Shown here: one piece after another, positions 12,424-64,000 of the stretch
How the letters are laid out: every line of letters starts with the position of its first letter
Position numbering within the stretch: the stretch's first letter is position 1
Assembly: GCA_963775805.1 (NCBI GenBank)
Contig: CAVZKG010000004.1
Location: 70,296 to 134,295, forward strand
Direction of reading: 5' to 3'
DNA from: an uncultured Verrucomicrobiae bacterium
Lineage (GTDB): Bacteria; Verrucomicrobiota; Verrucomicrobiia; Chthoniobacterales; JAFAMB01
Length of the DNA stretch: 64,000 nt
The notes under the pieces: generated by a model
What the model was told of the DNA's origin: nothing
Databases searched by the model: none
Seen by the model: the letters and a program-made list of their open reading frames with translations, nothing else
Made by a program: the position numbers and the translations under genes

Positions 12424-15400
12424 TCAGTCGCGGCCTCCGTTAAGAAGCGCATTGAGGGCATCCTCGTCGGAAAGTTGCTCAACGTCGGCCAATACGGTTG
12501 AGACACCTTCCGTCGAAGTTGAACCGCTCACGTCCTTTTTATCGTGAACTGCCGCTTCTACCGTGTCCGACAATGACACTTCCATTTTCTCCGCCAAATG
12601 CCCCGCCAGGGCGTAGATTGTCGGGTAGTTCCAGACCATCGTCGCGGACAGTGTCGTCCCAGTGGTTTGCTCGCATCGATTTTTTAATTCGAAGCCCATG
12701 AGCGAATCGAGCCCAAGCATACCCATAGGCTTTTCGATATCGATTGAGTTCGGATCGAGCTTGAGGACCGCCGCCAACAATTTCTTAAGATGCATTTCCA
12801 AGGCTGCGCGTCGCGCGAAGCCCGAACTAATCGCAAGCAACTCATCGCGCATTTGCTCTTGAAACCGCCGGGCCGGAACTTGCGAACTTCTTTGGACCGA
12901 TTCAGGATGGGCAGCCGCTCCAATATCTGCGAGCAACGGAGGCTCTTCGCCCATCGGGAAGGTTTGACGGAATTTTGCCCAATCCATGCGCATCACTGCC
13001 GCCTGGGTCGCGCCTTGCTGGAGTAGTAAATCCAGAGTCTTGACTCCAAGTGACGGTTGAAAACCTAAAATGCCACGTTGTTCCAGCGCTTTTATTGTGC
13101 GCTCTCCCCCCGGCGTTAATGCCAGTCCGGAGCCGTACCAGCCACCCCAGTTTACTCCGAGTGCATGCCGTTTGTTTGCACGTCGATGATGGACGAATGC
13201 GTCGACGAACGCATTCGCTGCGGCGTAACTGGTCTGCCCGGTTTGACCGAGCAGCGCACCGATAGAGGAGCAGCATACAAAGAACTGCAATGGCTCTTCC
13301 GACAAGCATCGTTCAAGAGCGAGAGTGCCGAGGATTTTGGGCCTGAAAACCGCCTCGAAGCTCTTCGAGTCAAGCTGTGGAACAAGGCGGTCGTCCGCTG
13401 CCGCCGCGGCGTGGACTACCCCTCGGACCGGCAACCAACCTTCGTCCCCGAGTATTTTGATTACCTTCAGAATGTCCTGTTCGTCGGCGATATCCGCAGA
13501 GAAGGTTCGTACTACCGCTCCCTCTGCTTCGATCTCCTGGACGCTCGAGACCCGATTAAACTCCGGGGTGCCGCGGTGAAGATTCTCCCACGTCGCTCGC
13601 TCCGGAAGTGGTGTCCGCCCGACAAGAACGATCTTGCGCGCGCCTTGGGCGGCCAGGTTTTGAGCAATCTTTAACCCCATTCCACCGAGTCCACCAGTGA
13701 TCAGGTAACAGCCGGGAATCGACCAATCGACCTGCATTTGCGTGGCCTCGGTTTTCCTTGGCTGGACAAGACGCGGAACGAATCGGATACCGTCGCGAAT
13801 TGAGGACTGATCTTCCTTATCCGGTTTCGTGATTTGCTCAATTATCGCTTCAACATTGTCGGCAATGGACGCGTCCGGATCCAGATCCAGCGATCCCCCC
13901 CAAATCTCTGGATGTTCGACTGCAAGGACCCGGCCCAAACCCCAGAGCGATGCACCTGACAGTGAGGGCAATCGGGATGGATGGGGAGGTTGCGCACCGT
14001 ATGTCACCAGCCATAAACGTGGACCCGTCGGTTGTAGAGGACTGCCGATGATCGACTGCGCCGCGCGGAGAGCATCCGAGAAAAGAGTGACCACCTGGTC
14101 GTATAGAGGTTCGATCTCACCAGGTTCCGGTTGTTCGTTCGTTCCCAATAGAAAAACCACATGGCGGCACGGCAGCGTGGTTGCGGCCAGAGCTGCATCA
14201 ATTGCCTGGCGAATCCGGTCCGGACGACTTGCATCGATCACAAATTGCCCTTTAGCGATAGTCCCGAATGTTTCTCCGCGATCGAGCCTAACAACCTGGT
14301 TACCGCGTAATTTGAGCGACCGGATTGTGGTCTCGCAGAGTGCTGAACCATCACCGAACACCAGCCACGCGCAGGGCCGGGAATCCGCTTGTCCGGTCTT
14401 CTCAATTTCAACCTGTATTTTCGGATGAGGAGCGGTCTTGGCGACAATCACCGCCTGCTCAAATATGCTTGGCTCATTTTCCGGATTTGCTTCAATTCCG
14501 CCTGCGTCGGAGTACCCGGTCGAGAGCAGAAGTTCCTTCCACTTTTCGATCGATAAAAGCGGATGCGAAGATCGCAGATCGGTATCTTCGAACCGCCACC
14601 ATCCTTCGGTCATGCCAAAAACCAAGTCAATCCAGCGGGTTGGCTTGATTCCCTCCAAAAGGGCTAGTAAACCTCCAGACGCCAAAATCGATTCCGTATT
14701 GGCGAGCGAACGGCGAAGATCCCGTGTAGCGTGCAAGACATTCGACGCAATGATTACGTCAAAATGCCGCTCCGTGATTCCCTGGAGCTTGTATGATTTC
14801 TCGACGTCGAAGAGCAAGTAGCGGACAAATGGATATTCCGAGAATCTTTTGCGGGCGTTCTCGAGGAATAATTTTGAAACGTCCGAGAAGACGTATTCGC
14901 ACGGTACATCCTTTAACAGCGGCAACAAGTGAGCCGTGGTGCCTCCCGTCCCAGCTCCAATTTCGAGCACGCGCAAAACTTTCCCTGGTGGGAGCGTTTC
15001 GACGACTTCTTGCAAGAATTCCCGCACCAGCTGGTTCGGTCCCCGCGCCATCCTCGAGCCTTCGTAAAAGTGCGTCGTTTTTTCGACCGACCCTTCAGGG
15101 AAGAGCAGCTGCAGTGGATCGCACACTCCGCGCAATACCTCAGATAAATGGCCGGCGCAGCGTTCAAATAAATCCAGCTCCGCACGGTACTGGGGATAGC
15201 GATCGTTAAGATCGTGAATCGTCAACGCCGAACGGTCCTGCGGTAATCTGGCGATGACCTCCCACTCGTCTCTGACCGCTCGGGCTTTACCTTCTTCGCA
15301 GAGTATCTGCAGCATCCGAGCCACCAACCGGGTATGTTGAGGGGCAATTCCTAATTTTCTGATCAATTCCTCCGTGGAAATATGATCCCCCGGAGCTGGT

Positions 15401-45394: not shown

Positions 45395-46078
45395 TTGCGA
45401 AAAATGCCTTTCCACCCCACAACATATTGTATACTGTGGGCCAAAACCTTCCATGAACAGACACTATCGTTTGCCGCTGAGGACCCGACCGAAAAACGTG
45501 TCGACCACCGTTCGTCGACGCCGGAGTACGCCCAGTCTTGTGACGACCAGTCTAATTGCGGTTGGCGGGATTGCGGCGCTGTTGCCTTTGGTCTTGCCGC
45601 GTTTTTTGTGTACAAGCATTTCTCCCACAAAGGAGCCCGAGTTGTGACCTCGGCTCCGGTCTCGTCCGCTGCGCCTTCCCCAGCTGCTACACCGTTTGTT
45701 GCGACAACTGACGTTCTAAAGCCGCTGTCGGACCCAAACCATCCTGGTTCTCCGGCACCTGCTCCAACGGTTGCCACTGGGATTCAGAGCCCATCGACGC
45801 CTACTTTGACCTCAACGTCGACTCCAACTTCTTCGGGTGCTTCAGTCAGCCAGAACGAAAAGAAGACGGAGGCGACTCCGGTAGATCAGCAGGAAAAAGC
45901 GAACTTGAAAACGGCGCGGAAGAGCCTCGAAAAGAAGAGGCAAACTGCAGAGCGAAAACGGGCACGCCTTGAGCACCAATATCAGAATCACGAAATTTCG
46001 ACCGCCGATTACAATAAGGGCGAGCAGGAATACAAAGACGAGATCCAGAAGTACCGGAAGGAAATGAGCACGGAGTAG
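45395..46078 (+). CDS. Hypothetical membrane-anchored protein with a Pro/Ser/Thr-rich linker and a Lys/Glu-rich C-terminal helix; the 5' end is uncertain
   Basis: The ORF has a TTG start. The C-terminal two thirds look real: APSPAATPF...STPTLTSTSTPTSS...KKRQTAERKRARLEHQYQNHEISTADYNKGEQEYKDEIQKYRKEM. The N-terminal 60 aa look non-protein-like. An overlapping frame (45453..45647) gives a better anchor sequence; see findings. Confidence 0.45.
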   Translation: MRKMPFHPTTYCILWAKTFHEQTLSFAAEDPTEKRVDHRSSTPEYAQSCDDQSNCGWRDCGAVAFGLAAFFVYKHFSHKGARVVTSAPVSSAAPSPAATPFVATTDVLKPLSDPNHPGSPAPAPTVATGIQSPSTPTLTSTSTPTSSGASVSQNEKKTEATPVDQQEKANLKTARKSLEKKRQTAERKRARLEHQYQNHEISTADYNKGEQEYKDEIQKYRKEMSTE

Positions 46079-49156: not shown

Positions 49157-52100
49157 ATGCGAAATTGTCACGGTTGGCAAAAATCGCTTCGCATCCCATT
49201 CCTTCTCGCGGCGCTTACATTTGTTTGGTTTTCTGGATTGGAATCTTCGCGCGCTCAAGATCTGACTTGGAGTCCCGAAGCGGCGGACGGTAACTGGTTT
49301 ACAGCCGGCAACTGGGTGCTCAACAACGAGGGCGCCACTGCGCCGCCGACTGCGGCCGAAAGCGCGAGTGTCAATGGGACGGCGCCGGCGACCGCGGTCC
49401 CGGCTCCCAATATTGGGACTCCTGGTGCCGTGGCAAATCAATTGCTAATAGGCGCAACTATCGGCGAAGGAGGTGTCATCGCCGCAGCTGCCGGTCAGGT
49501 GAATGTGAGTGGGAACGGTGCCTCCTTGACGCTCTCAGGGACGGATCTAACAGTTGGCCGGTCTTTGGAAGTTGTCGCCGGGACGCTCTCGGTCACGAAC
49601 GGAGGATCTTTGATCACTTCCGGGACGGAAGTTGGGGCGATTGAGGCCGGCGCGCAGTCAGTTGTCGAGATCGAAGGGGCAGGATCGACTTGGACGGAGA
49701 ACGGAACGCTCGATATCGGCGCCGGGAACACTGCGAATGTGATCGTTGCTGATGGGGGTTCGTTTCGAGGAGCGCAGCCGGTGACAATCGAATCATTTAA
49801 CGGCACGATTCAGATCGGTGAGGGAGGAGCCGCCGGTACCTTTAACGCACCATCAATTGTTAACAATGGAGAGATCGTAGCTGACTTTACAGACGCGACG
49901 ACGATCAGCGCGCAGATTTCTGGAGAAGGTGAAGTGGACATGGATGGCCCCGGAGTGCTGACGCTCACCGGAAACAATTCCTTCGCGGGGGAAATTTTCA
50001 TCGACGAAGGCACCATTGTGGCCGGAGCAACGAATGCGTTGGGTTCCAGCTTCGTTCAGGCCACCGGCACTACGAGCACCCTGCAGATCAACGCCGGTAC
50101 GACGCAGACGAACGACGTTACTCTCGCGGGGGGTGCAACTCTGAATAATTTTGGGACACTTATCGGGCCGGTAGAAGAAGGGCCAACCGTCGTCGTCTTT
50201 AGTGATGGAACTGTCAATAACGCGGCTGGAGCCTCCATTATCAATGCATCCGACGTGGCCATCGCTGGGGAAGTAGAAGAAGAGGGAGGACCCGAGGAAT
50301 CGGTGGGAGCGTCTCAGCTGCGCGCTGCCGCAATAGCTCCGGATCCGCTGGTTGTAACGAACGCGGGCATGATCTCCGGCACGACGGGCATTCAAGTGTT
50401 CGACTTGGTCGATGGGTCCATCACGAACGCGTCCACAGGAACGATCATCGGGACTGCTGGAACAGCGATCGATGGAACTCAGGGCGGTACCGTGACGCTG
50501 TCCAACGCCGGTATTATTCGCGGGAATGTGCTTCTCGCCGCGTTCCCGAATACGGTGACACTGATCACGGGAGGGCAAATTGTTGGAGATTTGAACCTGG
50601 GGGACGCCACCGAAGCCAGTCTTATTCTCGACGGAACCGGGGCCTCGAATTTGAGCCAGGCCGTGACCGGTGCGATCACGAATTTTAATTCGCTGACTAA
50701 ACAAAACACCGGCACCTGGACAATCGACGAAGCCCTCACTTATTCCGGGGGGACCAATATTAATGGAGGTACTCTCGTTGCAGGGGTAAACAACGCGTTC
50801 GGCTCCGGCTTGGTGAGCGCAAACGGCTCGGGGGTTTTGCAAGTGAACGCCGGGATAACGGTCCAGAATTTTATCCAATTAAACAACGGGGGAAGCCTGG
50901 TGAACGGTGGTGTCGTAGGAGTTAGCGGGGACGGTTCCTCGCTGACCGCTGCGATTACAGCTGCTGGCGGCGCAACGATCACAAATAACCGGGGCGCAAC
51001 AATAACCGGAACGGGGTTAATCGGGATCCAAAGCGCCAGCGGATCCACAACCGTAACGAACGCCGGATCCATTTCAGGGATTCAAGGCGTTGAACTGAAC
51101 GGGGGCGGCACAGTCACCAACAACGCCACAGGCGTCGTGACCGGATCTAGCGGAACGGCGGTTTCCATGGCAGGGAATAACGCCATGCTTTCCAATTCGG
51201 GCTTGATCAGCGGGAACGTTGCTCTCAACGCACTGAGTAATTCCGTTCAGCTCTTCTCTGGCAGCAGGATAGCTGGGAGCTTGGCGCTGAGTTCTTCTGG
51301 GACGAACCAGCTAATTCTCGATGGAGCCGGGACGGCGACAATCAGCCAGGCCGTGACAGGCTCCATAACCAATGCCGGAACGTTGATCAAACAGGGGAGT
51401 GGGACCTGGGTAATCGATACCCCGACAAGCGCGCCAACAGGTACCGACGTCAATCTCGGAACATTGCAGGTTGACTCGAGACTGGCCACGGCCGTTCTGA
51501 TGGTGCAACAAGGTGCGACGTTGAAGGGGTCCGGCGTTATCGATCTGGCCGGGGGAACCGTCGTAAACGCAGGCATGCTTGCGCCTGGCGATTCGCCGGG
51601 CACACTGACGCTCATAGGAAATTTTACTCAAACTTCCAGCGGCACATTTAATGTGCTGATTCTGTCACCGACCGAATTTGACAGGCTCAATGTGACAGGT
51701 CACGCCAGTTTGGCTGGAACGCTGAAGCTCACGCTCGGCAGCGGATATATCCCTGCACCAGGGACACAATTTACGATCCTGACAGCGGCCGGGGGAATTA
51801 GTGGGACATTCCAAAAAATCGTGACCTCGGGTGGCGGGAACTTTGGGGTCACGTACAAAAATGGAGTCGTCCAGATTGTCGCCAGTAGTCCGGCCAAGAT
51901 TGAACCGACCATATTCCATTTCTCTGATGGAACTCCAAGCAGCACGACCGCTCTAATGGCCGACGCGATGTTCTACGACTTTACATCGTTGTCCACCGAG
52001 ATGGCTGAGTCCGGAAAAGCGAATTCAATCGGTGTCTCATTCGATGGGGGCACCTTCACTTATCAAGGCCACCACGGAGATCAGTACGGTTTCCCTATCA

Positions 52101-52705
52101 GCGGCGAGTTCAAAGTGAGCGACCGCAGCAACCTGGACTATCAAATCCCGCTCCAGTATCTGGAGATTGCGAATACGGCGACGTTTCAGTCAGGACTGAC
52201 ACTATCGCTCCCGACGAGACTGATTATAGCGACACCCGATCAGCCGTTCTCCTGGGATACGTCTCCTGCGGTTGGCGTCGCGGCATCGGGAAGCCGAGAG
52301 ATTATTGGCGCTGGAGCACTTACGAATGTTTTTGCATACCGGTTCCCGGGATTTACGCTCACGTACGGAAACTACATCAGCTTTTTCGACGGAGATGTGA
52401 TGAGCGATGATGACGAGCAGTTTCCAGTCGGGGTGGATCAATCGATCTTGAAAAACGGCCTGAAATTAACGGTGCCGTTCGGCAAGGGGTGGATCGTCCA
52501 ATGCTACGGCATTTACACTGAGTTTTTGCGCACTGCAGCAGTCTCCTCGTACGTCACGGTCGGTTTCGAGCTGGGCCGTCATTTTGTCTGGAACGTGGAG
52601 GGCAAGGATGTCGATCTTGGTTATCTAAGTTTTGGACTCTATACGGAGCAGGGTAACCGATACAGCTCCGGTCACTTTCGCGTCGGGTCCGCGTGGCGGT
52701 TTTGA
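49157..52705 (+). CDS. Autotransporter-like outer-membrane protein with autotransporter-associated beta-strand repeats and a C-terminal beta-barrel
   Basis: Signal peptide: SLRIPFLLAALTFVWFSGLESSRAQ. Repeated G.G.L.L.G.N.F.G...I..GT units include GPGVLTLTGNNSFAGEIFIDEGTIVAG, NTGTWTIDEALTYSGGTNINGGTLVAG and GSGTWVIDTPTSAPTGTDVNLGTLQVD. The C-terminus alternates beta-strands and ends in ...RVGSAWRF, an aromatic terminal residue typical of OMP barrels. Confidence 0.85.
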   Translation: MRNCHGWQKSLRIPFLLAALTFVWFSGLESSRAQDLTWSPEAADGNWFTAGNWVLNNEGATAPPTAAESASVNGTAPATAVPAPNIGTPGAVANQLLIGATIGEGGVIAAAAGQVNVSGNGASLTLSGTDLTVGRSLEVVAGTLSVTNGGSLITSGTEVGAIEAGAQSVVEIEGAGSTWTENGTLDIGAGNTANVIVADGGSFRGAQPVTIESFNGTIQIGEGGAAGTFNAPSIVNNGEIVADFTDATTISAQISGEGEVDMDGPGVLTLTGNNSFAGEIFIDEGTIVAGATNALGSSFVQATGTTSTLQINAGTTQTNDVTLAGGATLNNFGTLIGPVEEGPTVVVFSDGTVNNAAGASIINASDVAIAGEVEEEGGPEESVGASQLRAAAIAPDPLVVTNAGMISGTTGIQVFDLVDGSITNASTGTIIGTAGTAIDGTQGGTVTLSNAGIIRGNVLLAAFPNTVTLITGGQIVGDLNLGDATEASLILDGTGASNLSQAVTGAITNFNSLTKQNTGTWTIDEALTYSGGTNINGGTLVAGVNNAFGSGLVSANGSGVLQVNAGITVQNFIQLNNGGSLVNGGVVGVSGDGSSLTAAITAAGGATITNNRGATITGTGLIGIQSASGSTTVTNAGSISGIQGVELNGGGTVTNNATGVVTGSSGTAVSMAGNNAMLSNSGLISGNVALNALSNSVQLFSGSRIAGSLALSSSGTNQLILDGAGTATISQAVTGSITNAGTLIKQGSGTWVIDTPTSAPTGTDVNLGTLQVDSRLATAVLMVQQGATLKGSGVIDLAGGTVVNAGMLAPGDSPGTLTLIGNFTQTSSGTFNVLILSPTEFDRLNVTGHASLAGTLKLTLGSGYIPAPGTQFTILTAAGGISGTFQKIVTSGGGNFGVTYKNGVVQIVASSPAKIEPTIFHFSDGTPSSTTALMADAMFYDFTSLSTEMAESGKANSIGVSFDGGTFTYQGHHGDQYGFPISGEFKVSDRSNLDYQIPLQYLEIANTATFQSGLTLSLPTRLIIATPDQPFSWDTSPAVGVAASGSREIIGAGALTNVFAYRFPGFTLTYGNYISFFDGDVMSDDDEQFPVGVDQSILKNGLKLTVPFGKGWIVQCYGIYTEFLRTAAVSSYVTVGFELGRHFVWNVEGKDVDLGYLSFGLYTEQGNRYSSGHFRVGSAWRF

Positions 52706-57424: not shown

Positions 57425-60400
57425 CTACCGTAGCCAGACTTCAACGCGCCGATTTTGTTCGCGGCCCTCCTCTGTATCGTTCGGAGCGACCGGCATGGCT
57501 TTCCCGTAGCCGGTAATAAGCGCCGGATTGAGATTTTGCTTTTTCAGTTCTTCCGCGACGACTTGAGCGCGTATCTTCGAGAGCCTGGTGTTTGATCTTG
57601 TTCCACCGATGTTATCCGAGAACCCGAACAACAGCAAAGTTTTGCCTTGGTAAGCAGGACTTTGAAGCAATTCGATCAATCTCCGCACATTCTCCATCGC
57701 TTCGTCGTCAAGCCGGGTGCTCCCCGGATGAAAATGAAGGATGATGTTCAGCTTTCCGGCACCGCGGGCGTCGTCCGCATACCCAGGCGGTGCGTCGGCA
57801 GGGATTACAGGACTGACTAGTTCAATTTTCTGACTCGAGAATTGCAGCCGCCCAATGTTGCTCGCGCCCATATTCTTGGCGGCCTGAACCAGCGCGGTGG
57901 CGAATGTGTCGACGTTCTTATTCTGAACGAACAGTGTAACCGCGTCGTTTAAAGCCTTCTGGAAAGACTCCGGGGCCGCGCCTCCGTGAACACAGCTCGC
58001 AACGAGTTTGTCCTTCGCGAACTCGTCCATTGACCATTGGTGGTATACGTCAAATTTTGACTTGTCTACGTCTGTCCTTGCCGGAATAGAACCTTTCAAA
58101 GGATTGAAGGCTTCCTGAGCTTCCTTGCTGCCGATGCTTTTCAACCACGCGATCGCCGATTCTTTATGCGGCGCGCCTTTCGCGAGCGTAAATCCATCCG
58201 CAACGATAATAAATGATCCGCTGGTTCCTGGATGGTTTACCCACCCGAAGTCCTGATTCTCCTTGAGATTGGCTTTGATGAACTCGCCGTCCGCCCAATC
58301 TCCCATCGAGTTGAACGCAACTTTACCGTCCATTAATTCCTTAACCGCCTGGTCCCAGGTAAGATTGGCGTGATCCGGGTTAATGTAGCTCTGCATCTTC
58401 GCGAAGTACTCCATCGCCTTTTTCACTCTCGGATCGTCCCATCTCGCGCGACCGCTAAAGAGATCAGCCCAATCTTGGGGACCGACTACGCCAAGAAGCG
58501 TATTTTCGAAAAGCTGGGCCGAAGCCCAGATCCCGGAGTCACCCACCCCGAGCGCTGGAATGCCAGCCTGCTTCAATTTGTCGCAAATCGCGAAGAACTG
58601 GTCGAATGATAAATCGCCACTGATTTTAATTCCGTATTTTTCCAGTAACTTCTTGTTGTACCAGAGAACGTTGCCGTGGTGTACACCGGTTAACACGGCG
58701 TAGGCTTTGCCGTCTTGGGACACCATGTCGACGAGTGCTTTTGGATAGGCTTTGTTCCAGTCGTCACTTTGATATAGCTCGGTGATCGGGTCGCAGTAAC
58801 CCGGCGCAACATATTGGCCGATCAATTCCCAACCAGGATGCGTTTGCCAGGTATCGGGCGGGTTATTGACCGCCAGTCGAGTCTGGAGAACCGGTTTGGC
58901 GCCGCTGCCGCCGCCGCCTGCAACGGTGGCGTTGATGATTCCCACACCAGGATATTGTTGTTTGTATGTATTGAACAAAGCGTTGAGCGCCGCCGCTTCA
59001 CCGCCGGATGTCCACCAGGAAAAAACCTCCAGCTTCGGACGTGTGAATTCAACGAACTTGCGCGTCCAGTTGTTTTGAGGATTCGCCGGAATATACAGAT
59101 AAAGCCGGCGGGAGAGAGGGTACGATTGGGTGGCGATAGAGAGCGTTGTCGGCAGAATCGGTTTTCCGGCAGCATCGGCGATTCCGAGAACTTTTGTGCT
59201 TCGTGAAAAGGATTGGCCGGTTAAGCCGATTCCATTCGGATCGGTTGCGACCGCATCGGCAAGCCTCGCGTTGTCTTCAAAACGGGAAGCGCGCGCCGAG
59301 ATCTTTTGCGAACCGAGCACCAACGAATTAAACGTATCCAGCGTACCGGAATTATCATCGGGAGCGTAGAGATAGATTGGACCTGAAGTGCCGCCTAACT
59401 GCGACCAGTCATTCGTCTTACCGGTGAAGATGTCTGCCAACTGCTGTTTCGTTAATGAATTAACCGGATTGTTCCGATTGACGACGATCGCAATTCCGTC
59501 CAGGCCCAGAAGATTCTGGCTCGTTGACGAAGTTAGGTTCCCAAGTCCGGCCGCAGCACATTTGTTGGACTCGTCCGAATTGATAGGGCGAGATGACATG
59601 GCAATGTCGCAGTTGCCACTGGCGAGATCTTGGAAGCCGGTCGAGGAACCGTGCGCTTGAATCTCGAACGTGACGTTCTCGTTAGACTCGCCCGGCAACA
59701 CCGCCTCGATCTCAACTTCATCATCTCTGGAGCCCGGCCTCAGCTGCACAGAGGTTGCTCCTTCGTATTTCAAAAAATCTTCGCACAAGGTCGGGATCAG
59801 CTCTTTCCCGATCGTATTTGAGCCATGGAGTCGTAGCGCGATCTTGTGATCGGCCGGACTTGGAAGAGTTGGTGGGGGAGCAGGGGTGTTTGCCGGTGCC
59901 GGCGCAGGAGTAGAAGCTTGTGCTATAACAGGTGTTGGCTGCGCCGTGACCGGAGCAGGCTGGGAAGTTTGTGTCGCAGTCGGGGCCGGCCGCGGAGATG
60001 CTGGAGCCGCTTGAGCAGCCGGTTCTCCACCTCCTTGTGAACTTGCGTTGATAACCCGGAGGCTCGCAAACTCCCAGGTATTCTGCGTGTTCTGGGCCGA
60101 CCCTCCCGAAATTCCGACGCAGCCGCCGCCTTGCGGCGGCTGACCGTTGATGCTGATGATCTGTTTATCGTTTATGTAAGCTGTCGCCTGGCGACCTTTG
60201 GTTACGACTCGGAGCTTGTTCTCTTGGCCAATGCCTTTGTTGATTGCCGTGCTTTCAGTCCACCCAACAGGAGTGAGCCATCGATCCGTCACGAAATGAC
60301 TGATCTTGAAAGAACCATTTGCTGAAATACTAAAACAATAAAAATTAGAGTAATCTTTTGCCCAGAATATCAGCCCGCCCGGCACGACGGGGTCTCCTGC

Positions 60401-60664
60401 CGCCAGCTTGATGTCGAGCTGAATATCGGCATCGTCGAAAACATTCGACTCATTCAGGACGCTCTGTGTCGTGTTCAGCACCGGCTTGAGCACTAACTTT
60501 CCATCCTTTACGCTCAGGATATCACCCGCCGTTCCCCAACTCGGGTCGAGGTTTGTAAAATCATCCTCGTAGAGGACGTCTGCCCCGTATGTGTATTTCA
60601 CGGAAGTAGAAATCAGAAATGCGATAACTACGGAAATGCAGGCTTTATAAACTGTCGGCTTCAT
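57425..60664 (-). CDS. Secreted four-domain fusion: LamG/DUF1080-like jelly-roll, Pro/Ala/Thr linker, PstS-like phosphate-binding domain, carbohydrate family-1 SBP domain, OmpA-like peptidoglycan-binding domain
   Basis: Signal: MKPTVYKACISVVIAFLISTSVKYTYG. Jelly-roll: aa ~30-205. Linker: aa 210-270 (PAPTATQTSQPAPVTAQPTPV...). PstS-like: aa ~272-540 (LHGSNTIG...GFQDLASGNCDIAMSSRPI...LGLDGIAIVVNRNNPVNSLTKQQLADIFTGK...YPLSRRLYLYIP). Sugar SBP: aa ~543-935 (LEVFSWWTSGGEAAALNALF...DTWQTHPGWE...). OmpA-like: aa ~970-1079 (FHPGSTRLDDEAM...LLLFGFSDNIGGTRSNTRLSKIRAQVV...NRRVEVWLR). Confidence 0.8.
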   Translation of the reverse strand: MKPTVYKACISVVIAFLISTSVKYTYGADVLYEDDFTNLDPSWGTAGDILSVKDGKLVLKPVLNTTQSVLNESNVFDDADIQLDIKLAAGDPVVPGGLIFWAKDYSNFYCFSISANGSFKISHFVTDRWLTPVGWTESTAINKGIGQENKLRVVTKGRQATAYINDKQIISINGQPPQGGGCVGISGGSAQNTQNTWEFASLRVINASSQGGGEPAAQAAPASPRPAPTATQTSQPAPVTAQPTPVIAQASTPAPAPANTPAPPPTLPSPADHKIALRLHGSNTIGKELIPTLCEDFLKYEGATSVQLRPGSRDDEVEIEAVLPGESNENVTFEIQAHGSSTGFQDLASGNCDIAMSSRPINSDESNKCAAAGLGNLTSSTSQNLLGLDGIAIVVNRNNPVNSLTKQQLADIFTGKTNDWSQLGGTSGPIYLYAPDDNSGTLDTFNSLVLGSQKISARASRFEDNARLADAVATDPNGIGLTGQSFSRSTKVLGIADAAGKPILPTTLSIATQSYPLSRRLYLYIPANPQNNWTRKFVEFTRPKLEVFSWWTSGGEAAALNALFNTYKQQYPGVGIINATVAGGGGSGAKPVLQTRLAVNNPPDTWQTHPGWELIGQYVAPGYCDPITELYQSDDWNKAYPKALVDMVSQDGKAYAVLTGVHHGNVLWYNKKLLEKYGIKISGDLSFDQFFAICDKLKQAGIPALGVGDSGIWASAQLFENTLLGVVGPQDWADLFSGRARWDDPRVKKAMEYFAKMQSYINPDHANLTWDQAVKELMDGKVAFNSMGDWADGEFIKANLKENQDFGWVNHPGTSGSFIIVADGFTLAKGAPHKESAIAWLKSIGSKEAQEAFNPLKGSIPARTDVDKSKFDVYHQWSMDEFAKDKLVASCVHGGAAPESFQKALNDAVTLFVQNKNVDTFATALVQAAKNMGASNIGRLQFSSQKIELVSPVIPADAPPGYADDARGAGKLNIILHFHPGSTRLDDEAMENVRRLIELLQSPAYQGKTLLLFGFSDNIGGTRSNTRLSKIRAQVVAEELKKQNLNPALITGYGKAMPVAPNDTEEGREQNRRVEVWLR

Positions 60665-60731: not shown

Positions 60732-63700
60732 TTACTGATTTGGGGGCTCGGCCGGAGAAGACAATGGTTGAGTTGAAGTTTTCGCTCCGGGGTTTTGACC
60801 CGCGTCTAGTGGCAAGGAAATGCCTGATCGGCCCGTCGCTGCAGGTTCCTTGTTCTGGGGATCGGCCGTTGTAGTACCGTTCGACGTCGGGTGCACCTGG
60901 GCCGCGACCAGATCCGCGATCTTTTGCGCCAACTCTGCTTTGTTCTCGGCCTCCTTTAGTTTGGCTTCTAACAAATCACGCCCGCTTGTTACTTCATCGG
61001 CCTGTTGTCGGGCTGTTCGCGCGTTTGCTTCTGATTTTGCGAGTTGCGCCTCCAAAGCCGAAGTTCGAGCAATAGCCTGACTCGCGTTCTGTACGGCCGA
61101 TTCCAACTTCTCCTGAACCTGCTTGAGTTGAGCTTCAAAATCAGATCGTTGAGCCGCGGCTGCGGCGGATACCTGCTGACTTTGCTGGAGCTTGCTCCTG
61201 GCATCCTTCAACTGCGCTTCGAGACCCGACCGCTGCGTAGCGGTAGTGTCAACGGTTTGCTGAGCCTGAACGAGTTTGTCCTGCGCTTCTTTTAGTTGAG
61301 CATCAACGGACGCGAGCTTTGATGTGGCCGCATCTGCGGCCTGCTGGTTTTGCGCCATCTTCTCTTGCGCCTGCTTGAGTTGTGACTCCAGGGAGGAACG
61401 TTGTGCAACCGCTGACTCCGCAGCTGCTTGGGCTGATTGGAGATTGTCCTGCGCTTGCTTCAGCTGCACCTGAATGTCGCCGCGCTGATTTGCCATTTGT
61501 TCAGCGGCTTGCTGCGAGACCTGAAGTCTATCCTGGGCCTGCTTGAGCTGAGCCTCCAGCAATGAACGCTGAGCCGAAACTGATTCTGCGGCCTGTTGAC
61601 TCTGTTGGAGCTGCTGTTCTACCTGCTTAAGTTGAGCCTCCAGGTTGGTCTGAAGAGACTTCGATTGATCCGGTGTCCGTTGAGCTTCTTCAAGTTTGTC
61701 CTGAACCTCTTTGAGTTGGGTTTCCAAGGACGAACGTTGAGCAGTGACGGCGTCGGATGCTTGCTGAGATTGCTCAAGCTTGCTCTGGGTCTCCTTTAGC
61801 TGCGCTTCAACTACAGACCTTTGTGTCGTGGCCGCCTCGGCTCTCAGCTGAGACTGTTTGAGTTTCTCCTGAGCATCCTTTAGTTGAGCGTTGACGATCG
61901 TGAGCTGAGAAGCGGCAGTTTCAGCGGTCTGTTGGTTCTGCTGAAATTTGTCCTGCGCTTCTTTTAGCTGCGTCTGCAGAGCAGCGATCTGTGAAGCGGC
62001 AACGCCGGAAGCCGCTTGCGCCTGCTGCAATTTTTCTTGGGAAGTTTTTAGTTCCGCTTCGGACGCCGAACGTTGGGAGGTTGCAAGGTTGGCTCCCCGT
62101 TCAATCTCTTTTAGCTTGTCCTGCAGGGTCTTGATTTGAGCCTCGAGCGCCGAACGTTGAGACGAAACTTTCTCTCCTTCCTTCTGGCTCAGTTGCTCTT
62201 GATCCGAGCCGTGGCCGTTGTGGGCGAGCTCTGCGATTTTTCGCTCGAGATTGCCGTACTCCAGGATGATCGCTCTTTTTCCATCGCTCGTAAGGCGCTG
62301 AACTGCTGCGATTGTAGCGACGCAAGCCAGCGCGACAAGGACCGCGACAAGCACTCCGTAAGTGGTTCGTCGGCTGCGTTTTTGGTCGGTAATGCTCTTC
62401 TCGATATATTCAATCTGTGCCGCGGAGAGCGAGGCGTGAAAATGGTTTAGCAGGGTCTCGCCATCCGCGAGACTCAGGCCAGGAGTCAAAAGATCATGTG
62501 TTCGTTTCCCATTCTTGAGCCAAAGCTTCATGCAACCGTCAACCCGGTCCCGCATCCGAACGAACTCCTGGTCTGCGTTCAGCCATTCCTGTACTCTTGG
62601 CCAATTTCGAAGAAGCGCCGGATGGGCGACCTGAATCATCAAATCCTGTTTGTGATCTGCCTCGGTGCGAAAGAGACCCTCGGAAACCATGGCATCCACG
62701 AAGGCTTGCGCGCCGGTTTGGAGATGGCTATCCAGTTCACGCGATGAAATAAGATCTCGGTATGGCACCAGGCGGCAACCGGCGCGCCCGTCATGATCAA
62801 GAAAAACGAGCCTGCGCATGACGAAGTCGAACGTCTGTTGGGCCTCGATGCTCAGCGAGTTGAAAACTCTTTCGGCGTGATTCGATAATGCACCAGCAAA
62901 CCCGTCCAAATCTTGATAGTCGGCCCATCGCAATAGCCCATCTTTGCGAACGGTCTGTCGGGCGTATAATTGCGAAAGCAAATACTCGAGCAGTGGCAGG
63001 GAATCAGCAGAAGCGAGAGCCGTATCGACAAGTTTGTCGTCGAGGCTTTGACCGGTTTTCGGCTCCGTTTCAAATCTTAATCCAGCGGCCTGCGCTGGAG
63101 ACCGGATCATCCGGCCGTATTCGTCTCGTGTTGGAGCCTGCAGGTCGAAACGTCCGCTTGGGTTCGTTAAGGCGATCAGCTCAGGAAATTGTTGGTATGA
63201 ACTGTAGTATTCACTTCGCAACGCGGCGAGCACATGAACCCTTTGGCTGTGAACCAAAGCCGAGATGGCCGAAATGAAATCCTGTTGCGTCTTTTCCGGG
63301 TAGTTGCCCGAAAAAAGATCCTCGAGTTGGTCAACAAAGATCGCGAGTTGCGCTTTCGGTTTCGCCCTGCGAAGTCTCCGGTGCCGGGCTAGCTCCACGC
63401 TCTCAATCCGACCGGTTGCCGGTGACAGCTCCTTTTCCCGGATAATAAGTGAATTCAGTTCTTCCGTGCTGATCTGATCGAGAATTTCCCCGATCCGGGC
63501 CGCCAATGCACCCGGGTGGTCCTTGAGTTCAGCGGCGAGTGTTTGAAGCGCCTCTTCGGATTTGCCTTGTTGAAGCTCCGGCAACGCCTTGTCAGATAAA
63601 AGCGCGGCGGCCAGCGCAACAAAGGGATCGGTTGCAGAACCGGGTCGTGCGATTGCCCGGCGCCACGGACCTTCTCCCATAACGGTCGCCAACTCCCCCA

Positions 63701-64000
63701 AAAGCGGGAGAACTCCCCCTCGGATCAGTGAAGATTTTCCTGAGCCGCTCGGACCCAGGACAAGAACAAACGGTTTTCTTCCAATTGCCTGTTCGTTGAG
63801 AGCGTCAACAACTGCGCCGATTGCTTTCGTTCGCCCATGGAAAACTGGCGCATGCTCAAAATCGAAAAATTGGAGTCCGCGGAACGGGTCGAAATCCCAC
63901 GACCTTCCGCTCGCCGGAGTCTTGCGAGGAACAATCTCGTTCTCAACCTGTCTCTTAAGGAAAAGGCGGAAGTGCTCTCGAAAAAGAGACTCAAATTCTT
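60732..64000 (-). CDS. STAND-type (nSTAND-like) P-loop NTPase with one TM helix and a long C-terminal coiled-coil repeat array; 5' end lies beyond the right window edge
   Basis: The ORF track starts at TTG 63701, but the frame stays open to 64000. My translation upstream is ...FDPFRGLQFFDFEHAPVFHGRTKAIGAVVDALNEQAIGRKPFVLVLGPSGSGKSSLIRGGVLPLLGELATV... Walker A GPSGSGKSS is at 63729-63755. Walker B LAIFVDQLEDLF is at ~63321-63347. The TM helix YGVLVAVLVALACVATIAAV is at ~62301-62363. Confidence 0.85.
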   Translation of the reverse strand, partial: EFESLFREHFRLFLKRQVENEIVPRKTPASGRSWDFDPFRGLQFFDFEHAPVFHGRTKAIGAVVDALNEQAIGRKPFVLVLGPSGSGKSSLIRGGVLPLLGELATVMGEGPWRRAIARPGSATDPFVALAAALLSDKALPELQQGKSEEALQTLAAELKDHPGALAARIGEILDQISTEELNSLIIREKELSPATGRIESVELARHRRLRRAKPKAQLAIFVDQLEDLFSGNYPEKTQQDFISAISALVHSQRVHVLAALRSEYYSSYQQFPELIALTNPSGRFDLQAPTRDEYGRMIRSPAQAAGLRFETEPKTGQSLDDKLVDTALASADSLPLLEYLLSQLYARQTVRKDGLLRWADYQDLDGFAGALSNHAERVFNSLSIEAQQTFDFVMRRLVFLDHDGRAGCRLVPYRDLISSRELDSHLQTGAQAFVDAMVSEGLFRTEADHKQDLMIQVAHPALLRNWPRVQEWLNADQEFVRMRDRVDGCMKLWLKNGKRTHDLLTPGLSLADGETLLNHFHASLSAAQIEYIEKSITDQKRSRRTTYGVLVAVLVALACVATIAAVQRLTSDGKRAIILEYGNLERKIAELAHNGHGSDQEQLSQKEGEKVSSQRSALEAQIKTLQDKLKEIERGANLATSQRSASEAELKTSQEKLQQAQAASGVAASQIAALQTQLKEAQDKFQQNQQTAETAASQLTIVNAQLKDAQEKLKQSQLRAEAATTQRSVVEAQLKETQSKLEQSQQASDAVTAQRSSLETQLKEVQDKLEEAQRTPDQSKSLQTNLEAQLKQVEQQLQQSQQAAESVSAQRSLLEAQLKQAQDRLQVSQQAAEQMANQRGDIQVQLKQAQDNLQSAQAAAESAVAQRSSLESQLKQAQEKMAQNQQAADAATSKLASVDAQLKEAQDKLVQAQQTVDTTATQRSGLEAQLKDARSKLQQSQQVSAAAAAQRSDFEAQLKQVQEKLESAVQNASQAIARTSALEAQLAKSEANARTARQQADEVTSGRDLLEAKLKEAENKAELAQKIADLVAAQVHPTSNGTTTADPQNKEPAATGRSGISLPLDAGQNPGAKTSTQPLSSPAEPPNQ
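60894..62162 (-). repeat. In-frame tandem repeat: 14 exact-register 84-nt (28-aa) units plus one degenerate unit, consensus about (A/S)QRSxLEAQLKxAQDKLxQSQQAAxxAx
   Basis: I segmented residues 514-936 of the ORF by hand. Every unit is exactly 28 aa (four heptads) with no indels, for example SQRSALEAQIKTLQDKLKEIERGANLAT / AQRSLLEAQLKQAQDRLQVSQQAAEQMA / AQRSSLESQLKQAQEKMAQNQQAADAAT. Confidence 0.9.

Follow-up and report, generated by a model that had tools for sequence, protein, structure and literature searches.

A conserved two-gene unit of Chthoniobacterales pairs a predicted membrane-spanning nSTAND1 protein with an exported partner

The right-hand end of a 64,000-nucleotide stretch of DNA from an uncultured Verrucomicrobiae bacterium of the order Chthoniobacterales (assembly GCA_963775805.1, contig CAVZKG010000004.1, positions 70,296 to 134,295; this whole stretch is called the window below) carries a gene for a STAND-type nucleoside triphosphatase (NTPase) that runs off the edge. 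Read from its N-terminal side, the encoded fragment consists of a helical linker, a complete nSTAND1 NTPase module, a basic cluster followed by a single hydrophobic helix, a long array of coiled-coil repeats and a Pro/Thr-rich tail, and the gene for an exported protein lies a short distance downstream (Table 1). Judged by its architecture and predicted topology alone, the STAND protein is very probably a bitopic inner-membrane receptor, with its C-terminal ~520 residues in the periplasm. The trait specific to this gene is the conserved two-gene unit that it forms with the exported partner. That strictly conserved downstream partner, the most informative feature of the locus, was absent from the initial annotation of this DNA.

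The minus-strand frame is free of stop codons from position 60732 to the window edge, and positions 60732-63998 translate into 1088 codons of which only the final one is a stop. A TTG at 63701, the start chosen by the open-reading-frame lister, falls inside the NTPase domain and downstream of its Walker A motif, and is therefore not the real start. The missing part can be read from a syntenic ortholog, L083, which was found by searching with the downstream partner protein and then taking the contig of the 85%-identical match. L083 and the window run collinear for ~20 kb, with 78-79% of their nucleotides identical. The STAND protein of L083 has 1284 residues; the first residue of the window fragment pairs with residue 199 of that protein, and the ungapped alignment covers 600 residues at 76.5% identity. 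The window gene therefore almost certainly continues for ~198 codons past position 64000 as one open reading frame, and on this alignment the fragment makes up the last 1088 residues of a predicted ~1286-residue protein. An initial word-indexed homolog search with a 633-residue query had brought up over 600 relatives, all of them at 60% identity or less and at most 1104 residues long; this search missed the L083 ortholog, and its identity ceiling is not to be read as an absence of closer relatives. The linker at the start of the fragment aligns without gaps to L083 residues 199-235 and also to the homologs P0001-P0026, and in an AlphaFold2 (AF2) model of the homologous N-terminal domain (predicted local distance difference test, pLDDT, 85.9) the same residues form the terminal helix.

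Table 1. Features of the two-gene unit, in window coordinates; residue numbers are those of the translated fragment
Feature	Position	Strand	Basis or remark
Helical linker, last 37 residues, after the DUF4062-like N-terminal domain	63888..63998	(-)	alignment and AF2
nSTAND1 NTPase module (P-loop, helical and winged-helix parts), residues 38-499	62502..63887	(-)	Pfam
Walker A, GPSGSGKSS, residues 82-90	63729..63755	(-)	sequence
Walker B, LAIFVDQLEDLF, residues 218-229	63312..63347	(-)	sequence; contains FVDQLED
Basic cluster KRSRR (residues 540-544) and single transmembrane helix (core residues 548-566)	62298..62381	(-)	hydrophobicity
About fifteen 28-residue (4-heptad) coiled-coil repeats, residues ~610-1029	60912..62171	(-)	lag-28 identity, Pfam
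Pro/Thr-rich C-terminal tail	60735..60911	(-)	conserved motif at 60762-60833
Stop codon	60732-60734	(-)	translation
Partner gene, exported 1079-residue protein	57425..60664	(-)	67 nt downstream of the STAND gene, same strand

The NTPase module matches the Pfam nSTAND1 family (PF20703) over profile positions 1-377 of 379, with a score of 270 bits against a cut-off of 27.1 (E 6.5e-80), and also matches AAA_16 (E 3e-11). The entry motif PFRGLQFFDFEHAPVFHGR, at residues 38-56, is where the nSTAND1 profile starts. Across 16 homologs the Walker A residues G82, G85, S86, G87, K88, S89 and S90 are invariant, as are D223, L225, E226, L228 and F229 of Walker B. The multidomain layout typical of STAND proteins is found as well, with a C-terminal repeat array in the window and an N-terminal domain in L083 and in all full-length homologs. 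The initial annotation had called the gene a STAND NTPase on the strength of an entry motif and Walker A and B motifs, in a frame that it described as open to the window edge with the N-terminal region beyond position 64000. All of this is borne out: the motifs are located in the translation, the whole nSTAND1 profile is matched, the 1088-codon translation has no internal stop, and the L083 reading frame runs on through the N-terminal domain. No second copy of nSTAND1 was found within the window, NCBIfam gave no model for either part of the STAND protein, and a profile search of PDB sequences with the NTPase module returned no solved relative, only tropomyosin-type and generic P-loop matches. 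A difference among orthologs occurs after the fourth strand of the NTPase, where P0004, P0005 and P0007 read AALGS(E/D)YY in place of the AALRSEYY of the window, with Gly replacing Arg. The window Arg is a candidate sensor-I arginine, and the copies with Gly might have altered or lost hydrolysis.

A short helical juxtamembrane stretch follows the NTPase module and ends in the KRSRR cluster. The 19-mer that comes next, GVLVAVLVALACVATIAAV, has a mean Kyte-Doolittle hydrophobicity of 2.81 and a summed Hessa free energy of -2.32 kcal/mol, and is the sole strongly hydrophobic segment in the fragment. Across 133 family members, the flank on the N-terminal side of the helix has 6.3 Lys plus Arg per 15 residues versus 3.6 on the C-terminal side; the N-terminal flank is the richer one in 122 members and the poorer one in only 3. 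By this positive-inside bias the N-terminus is predicted to lie in the cytoplasm and the C-terminus outside. The arm would be extracytoplasmic because the NTPase needs cytoplasmic nucleotide and the protein has only one transmembrane helix. The topology also agrees with reports of single-pass kinases in bacteria of the Planctomycetes-Verrucomicrobia-Chlamydiae (PVC) group that carry periplasmic WD40, TPR and DUF1080 domains (PMC11032199). If the hydrophobic segment did not span the membrane, the entire protein, coiled coil included, would be cytoplasmic. This is extremely improbable given the hydrophobicity and free energy of the segment, its KRSRR flank, the preservation of both helix position and charge bias across 133 otherwise divergent members, and the export of the partner protein.

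A genome scan recovered 78 loci of this kind, nearly all titled Verrucomicrobiota, Verrucomicrobiae, Chthoniobacterales or Terrimicrobiaceae, with several from one genome and some in tandem. Nearly every complete Chthoniobacterales paralog (about 70) has a hydrophobic helix after basic residues, 431-478 residues past Walker A. A more distant set was drawn from the best 150 representatives of the N-terminal-domain family, of which 59 were long enough to judge, and in 56 of these the helix is at the same position. A Pfam scan of seven distant members found nSTAND1 in all seven and WD40 or TPR arms in most. A transmembrane helix 420-550 residues past Walker A is the rule in this nSTAND1 clade, whether the arm is a coiled coil or a WD40 array. 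The idea in the initial annotation that the sensor arm of this one protein had been "replaced" as an oddity does not survive, since a helix at this place is the rule of the clade; nor is membrane-spanning topology wholly undescribed, since a 2025 preprint on Pepco-linked proteases (PMC12642450) mentions "transmembrane STAND ATPases" in passing, in a figure description that is the only explicit mention found.

Three types of arm follow the helix in the paralogs. The first consists of arrays of 28-residue coiled-coil repeats, from 228 to more than 900 residues long. The second has 14-22 WD40 repeats and a TPR-like end, often with a Ser/Thr kinase before the DUF4062-like domain at the N-terminus, and gives proteins of more than 2000 residues. 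The third begins as a coiled coil and then passes into a distinct, uncharacterized C-terminal end without the repeat; in L054, L058 and L059 the coiled coil is followed by a conserved end (...GEFHIVHVAQQ... / ...GEFRIVNVHQLDR). Three other homologs (P0026, P0033 and P0072) bear the JGI label "ketosteroid isomerase-like protein". Paralogous genes for transmembrane nSTAND1 proteins can lie in tandem or within ~25 kb of each other, as in L058 (4920-6509 and 10001-11590) and in L029/L079 and L041/L076, which share contigs; to judge from their arrangement, such tandem or nearby paralogs are typical of locally expanding receptor families.

In the window protein the arm is a coiled-coil array of ~420 residues with no insertion or deletion, built on the consensus xAxSQRSxLEAQLKxAQxKLQQAQQAAD, in which positions 9, 13 and 20 are taken by Leu or another large hydrophobic residue. 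Self-identity of the array is 0.386 at lag 28, versus 0.15-0.17 at the strongest lags outside the multiples of 28, and hydrophobic autocorrelation peaks at lags 7 (0.24), 21 (0.23) and 28 (0.48). Pfam Tropomyosin matches the array (E 5e-10), and there are profile matches to SMC coiled coils as well. The repeat is seen at the protein level only; Tandem Repeats Finder detected no 84-nt periodicity in the DNA. Here again the initial annotation was sound: its basic stop-transfer stretch and single transmembrane helix correspond to KRSRR and the one strongly hydrophobic 19-mer, its ~420 residues of perfectly periodic coiled coil to some fifteen in-register repeats, and its Pro/Thr-rich tail to the last 58 residues, while its placement of the coiled coil outside the cytoplasm agrees with the charge bias of the 133 members.

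The tail contains a motif, GRSGxxLPLDAGQNPxxxTSTQPL with the core LPLDAGQN, that is conserved in the orthologs. With one exception, a stray match outside the gene in L041, a search with the pattern [LIV]P[LIV]D[ATV]G[QRT][NST] located it only at ortholog loci that have the partner gene. Orthologs are here the loci that share at least 55% identity with the window in the NTPase region, plus L083, and among them the length of the array ranges from 228 to 812 residues, or ~3.5-fold. Between the window and L083, the partner protein is 85% identical, the NTPase module 77%, the tail 65.5% and the coiled coil 48.7%; the last value is near the 39-47% identity between repeats within one protein. From the low identity and variable length of the coiled coil, set beside the higher identity of the tail and partner, the stalk appears as the fast-changing part, and the terminal peptide and partner as constrained. 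A role for the coiled coil as a molecular ruler was considered and rejected, because so variable a stalk length excludes a simple ruler. How the arrays change may be visible in L083 (6087-9941), where a 112-residue (4 x 28) segment of the array is duplicated almost identically (protein residues ~860-1090), and in the window array, where lags 84 and 112 come close to lag 28 in strength; the two observations suggest that blocks of several repeats have recently undergone unequal recombination. In L001/L005 (contig_46299, ~12900-13600) the array is interrupted, the called gene ends early, the tail motif lies in a 189-residue open reading frame in another frame, and the partner gene is also split in two, which points to a frameshift or assembly error within the repeats.

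The partner protein starts with a signal peptide and a DUF1080/lectin-like domain; beyond a Pro-rich linker come a PstS-like domain, a solute-binding domain of sugar type and, last, an OmpA-like domain for peptidoglycan binding. The lectin-like, PstS-like and sugar-binding-like domains are three putative ligand-binding modules. The Pfam matches are PBP_like_2 (3.8e-35), SBP_bac_1 (3.4e-25), OmpA (8.8e-17) and, weakly, 3keto-disac_hyd (1.6e-3), and NCBIfam adds a PstS family (1.5e-46) and a GlcS-like model (2.4e-30). A gene for this protein lies directly downstream of the STAND gene, on the same strand, in ten ortholog loci (L001/5, L002, L006-L010, L012, L028 and L037), in L083 and in the window. 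The partner is present in every ortholog locus with enough downstream sequence, at 59-75% identity in the ortholog loci, and is absent from ~65 paralog loci, with exceptions in L056 (opposite strand) and L025 (a partial match). In the window and in L002, where the gap was measured, 54-67 nt separate the two genes, and a look for terminator-like or promoter-like sites in the 67-nt gap of the window gave none. A third conserved gene was sought and rejected, the STAND gene and its partner being the only ones common to all ortholog loci.

Could the coiled coil serve for constitutive oligomerization or as a spacer only, with the partner next door for reasons of co-regulation and the signal sensed in the membrane or the cytoplasm? 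The repeats are of low information content, rich in Gln, Ala, Leu, Glu and Lys, and turn over rapidly, with no specific surface kept along the array, all of which would suit a mere spacer. We nonetheless consider this improbable: the tail motif is conserved and limited to loci with the partner, the gene order is strict and the measured gaps are short, with no terminator-like site in that of the window, and the paralogs carry classical ligand-binding repeats (WD40 and TPR) at the same extracytoplasmic position.

The OmpA-like domain of the partner, which resembles those of Pal and MotB, raises the further possibility that the pair is mainly structural, a tether between inner membrane and peptidoglycan like TolA-Pal or Lpp, in which the NTPase would regulate assembly without any signaling output. 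A long helical periplasmic domain after an N-in anchor fits such a tether, and the conserved C-terminal peptide could be its docking site. The range of array lengths, however, is unlike that of a defined spacer, no TolQR- or ExbBD-like neighbors occur in the inspected loci, and a complete STAND switch with invariant Walker motifs and an enzyme-like N-terminal domain would be superfluous in a tether. Paralogs, moreover, exchange the coiled coil for sensor-type WD40/TPR arms. A structural role thus has only a slim chance of being the right explanation.

The N-terminal domain that lies beyond the window is ~198 residues long in the homologs, starts with MR(R/T)IDIFVSSPxDVQKER and is highly conserved in all full-length members; the Glu of an FWE motif within it is nearly invariant. 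It passes no Pfam or NCBIfam model in the full-length homologs. An exhaustive profile search with the domain revealed a large family: when clustered at 50% identity, its members form 2567 clusters at E <= 1e-3 and 1305 at the stricter limit of E <= 1e-10. AF2 predicted a parallel beta/alpha fold for the homologous domain when given a 73-sequence alignment that included distant members, which yielded the model already cited; with 11 close sequences pLDDT was 43. Pfam DUF4062 (PF13271) gives sub-threshold matches to 19 of 22 distant members (profile positions 3-80 of 82, best E 2e-4) and to 1 of the 11 closest homologs (E 0.14). Foldseek against BFVD gave as its best-probability match a deoxyribosyltransferase (probability 0.99, TM-score 0.41, E 4e-3), a weak hint, and a profile search of PDB sequences yielded no solved relative of the domain, only MukF noise. 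By homology, the missing N-terminus would be a conserved alpha/beta domain distantly related to DUF4062, a remote relative at best. DUF4062 domains have been described as TIR-like NAD+-cleaving enzymes (NADases) that are activated by oligomerization and adjoin NACHT modules in TEP1 and NWD1 (PMC13174449). To call the N-terminal domain here DUF4062-like, and possibly a NADase, is reasonable but unproven.

The genes that surround the unit bear on whether it serves physiology or immunity. In the synteny shared by the window and L083 the neighbors encode a GH116 enzyme, an ABC transporter, a LacI-type regulator and glutamine synthetase. The window neighbors are metabolic, transport and housekeeping genes, and no defense genes were seen in the three gene-called neighborhoods inspected (L001, L002 and L083). 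The STAND-partner pair recurs in at least a dozen Chthoniobacterales assemblies. PADLOC matched no defense model, including Avs, and gave only a weak P-loop match to mad8 (E 3.9e-6) and coiled-coil noise.

A receptor for anti-phage or other conflict, in effect a transmembrane Nod-like receptor (NLR), would use the arm to detect phage adsorption, DNA injection or a toxin and, once the STAND module oligomerizes, would respond by NAD+ depletion through the DUF4062-like domain and abortive infection, with the partner as decoy or co-receptor. Several points favor this proposal. The nSTAND1 clade was defined in predicted counter-invader systems (PMC8195603), the family has undergone lineage-specific expansion (one genome can hold several paralogs, some of them tandem copies, and the arms vary as they do in NLR repertoires), and the coiled-coil array is fast-changing. 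DUF4062 proteins are found in phage defense (Swarozyc, PMC13174449, and the Evangelion preprint), and the N-terminus weakly matches that of the PADLOC candidate PDC-S60 in 8 of 11 members. Against a defense role, the ortholog and its partner are co-inherited in conserved synteny among carbohydrate and transport genes, the pair recurs across assemblies with no defense genes in the inspected neighborhoods, PADLOC offers only the weak mad8 match, and the partner domains suggest the binding of solutes or glycans rather than phage parts. We therefore regard defense as an unlikely, if far from negligible, function for this ortholog, and rank envelope or nutrient signaling above it; paralogs may differ. 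As to output, the conserved chromosomal context leans toward physiology and envelope surveillance rather than immunity.

The explanation that we prefer, and one that we advance tentatively and at somewhat less than even confidence as a complete mechanism, is that the bitopic STAND receptor reads a periplasmic or envelope signal by way of its partner and switches on a cytoplasmic effector. The coiled-coil stalk, probably a dimer or trimer, would present the tail peptide to the wall-anchored, multidomain partner. Ligand occupancy of the partner, or the geometry or state of the envelope, would then shift the association or register of the stalk. The change would pass through the transmembrane helices and free the nSTAND1 module for nucleotide exchange and oligomerization, as in other STAND proteins. 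Oligomerization would in turn cluster and activate the N-terminal DUF4062-like domains, and the likely output would be cleavage of NAD+, because DUF4062 domains are oligomerization-activated TIR-like NADases.

Several points weigh against this mechanism. In canonical STAND autoinhibition the sensor directly contacts the NTPase module; here the membrane lies between arm and NTPase, which makes such contact impossible and the coupling step hypothetical. A simple rod that crosses the periplasm perpendicularly could not be as long, or vary so widely in length, as this arm, which has 228-812 residues past the helix (~30-120 nm when straight). The docking of the tail on the partner is drawn from co-occurrence alone, and the calls of helix and topology follow from rules of hydrophobicity and charge bias. 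The N-terminal domain of the window gene itself lies outside the window and is known from homologs; all of the DUF4062 matches fall under the gathering score (a 24.7-bit cut-off), and no TIR domain came up when Foldseek compared the N-terminal model with the PDB, the matches being generic Rossmann-like or P-loop-like folds at TM-scores under 0.4.

Comparison with described systems helps to place the protein. It shares with the nSTAND1 clade of STAND NTPases (Kaur, Iyer, Burroughs and Aravind, eLife 2021; PMC8195603) the whole-profile NTPase match and the order of an N-terminal effector-type domain, NTPase switch and C-terminal repeat arm. Here, however, a transmembrane helix splits the switch from the arm, the arm is a coiled coil rather than a WD40, TPR or lectin array, and the N-terminal domain passes no Pfam model. 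Published nSTAND1 members have been treated as cytoplasmic, for example the nSTAND1-FGE proteins diversified by diversity-generating retroelements (PMC10907252), and transmembrane sensors go undiscussed in large surveys of bacterial STAND proteins (PMC13581612). The "transmembrane STAND ATPases" of PMC12642450 are alike in combining a STAND NTPase with membrane spanning. They are, however, Pepco-associated proteins of Actinobacteria and cyanobacteria, noted there as sensors in fusion with proteases, and the present protein has a different effector, ectodomain and partner, with no protease or Pepco.

The DUF4062-STAND proteins, which include the bacterial NADase system Swarozyc and human TEP1, NWD1, NWD2 and NPHP3 (PMC13174449), likewise place an alpha/beta domain directly before a STAND NTPase, with repeats after it, and share the proposed activation by oligomerization. 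They differ in having NACHT where the window protein has nSTAND1, and in being soluble rather than membrane-spanning, and the likeness of the N-terminal domains is sub-threshold and unconfirmed by the PDB fold search. The Avs1-5 and bNACHT proteins show the same tripartite layout of effector, NTPase and sensor and a similar expansion with variable sensors. Those proteins are cytoplasmic, sense intracellular phage proteins and reside in defense islands, in contrast to this gene with its extracytoplasmic arm, non-defense context and lack of a PADLOC Avs match.

In joining an enzyme in the cytoplasm through one transmembrane helix to a repeat or ligand-binding domain outside it, the protein resembles the single-pass Ser/Thr kinases of PVC bacteria (PMC11032199) and those of PknB type. 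Many paralogs carry such a kinase before the DUF4062-like domain; the present ortholog has none, and a STAND switch is interposed. Two further likenesses are functional analogies. Toll-like receptors also join a repeat ectodomain through one transmembrane helix to a cytoplasmic domain of TIR type that is activated when the receptors cluster, and the accessory binding protein here is reminiscent of MD-2 or of the periplasmic binding proteins of Tar, LuxQ and TorS; there is, on the other hand, no homology of ectodomains, the orientation is opposite (N-terminus inside) and the NTPase switch is extra. TolA-Pal and TonB likewise start from an N-in anchor, extend into the periplasm as a long helical or Pro-rich region with an element for interaction at its C-terminus, and have an OmpA-like partner. 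Unlike them, this system has no TolQR/ExbBD motor at the inspected loci and no globular C-terminal domain, and has a large NTPase switch. The NTPase clade is thus known, the transmembrane subfamily is large and essentially undescribed, and the combination of coiled-coil and peptide ectodomain with this partner was not found described.

Other features of the window lie apart from the unit. On the minus strand, positions 1319-32300 hold a hybrid type I polyketide synthase/non-ribosomal peptide synthetase cluster (Pfam), composed of four KS-AT megasynthases (with DH, ER, KR, methyltransferase and ACP domains) and one C-A-PCP-TE module with a TubC-type docking domain. On the plus strand, positions 49157-52705 encode a 1182-residue repeat protein rich in Gly, Thr, Ser and Asn, with an N-terminal signal-like segment, that looks from its translation like an autotransporter or adhesin. 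A 227-residue open reading frame at 45395-46078 (plus strand) combines a single hydrophobic segment with a stretch rich in Pro, Ser and Thr and a C-terminal helix that is highly charged, and a relative of 231 residues without a Pfam match occupies the same syntenic position in L083.

The accepted view of STAND/NLR proteins, whether from animals, plants, fungi or bacteria, is that they work as intracellular sensors, whose arms read cytoplasmic ligands and autoinhibit the NTPase. A clade with its arm across the membrane would mean that the switch can be driven from outside the cytoplasm, and would need another coupling mechanism. Bacteria would then possess a class of receptors in which traits of Toll-like receptors and of NLRs come together. 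It is possible, though on balance doubtful, that the protein described here is the founding example of an extracytoplasmic-sensing STAND/NLR switch, in which Toll-like topology is combined with an NLR switch, a TIR-like NADase and a peptidoglycan-anchored co-receptor docked through a C-terminal peptide. The locus is a good entry point to such questions, as a compact two-gene unit with a candidate co-receptor and a short conserved docking peptide, and because of these properties the interaction, the topology and the NADase activity are each directly testable. If the assignments are true, the chassis of DUF4062-like domain, nSTAND1, transmembrane helix and variable ectodomain would constitute a very large unrecognized receptor family, with more than 1300 clusters of the N-terminal domain at 50% identity in public data. 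Even if the unit serves ordinary envelope or nutrient signaling, it would still represent a new output pathway for sensing by periplasmic binding proteins in Verrucomicrobiota.

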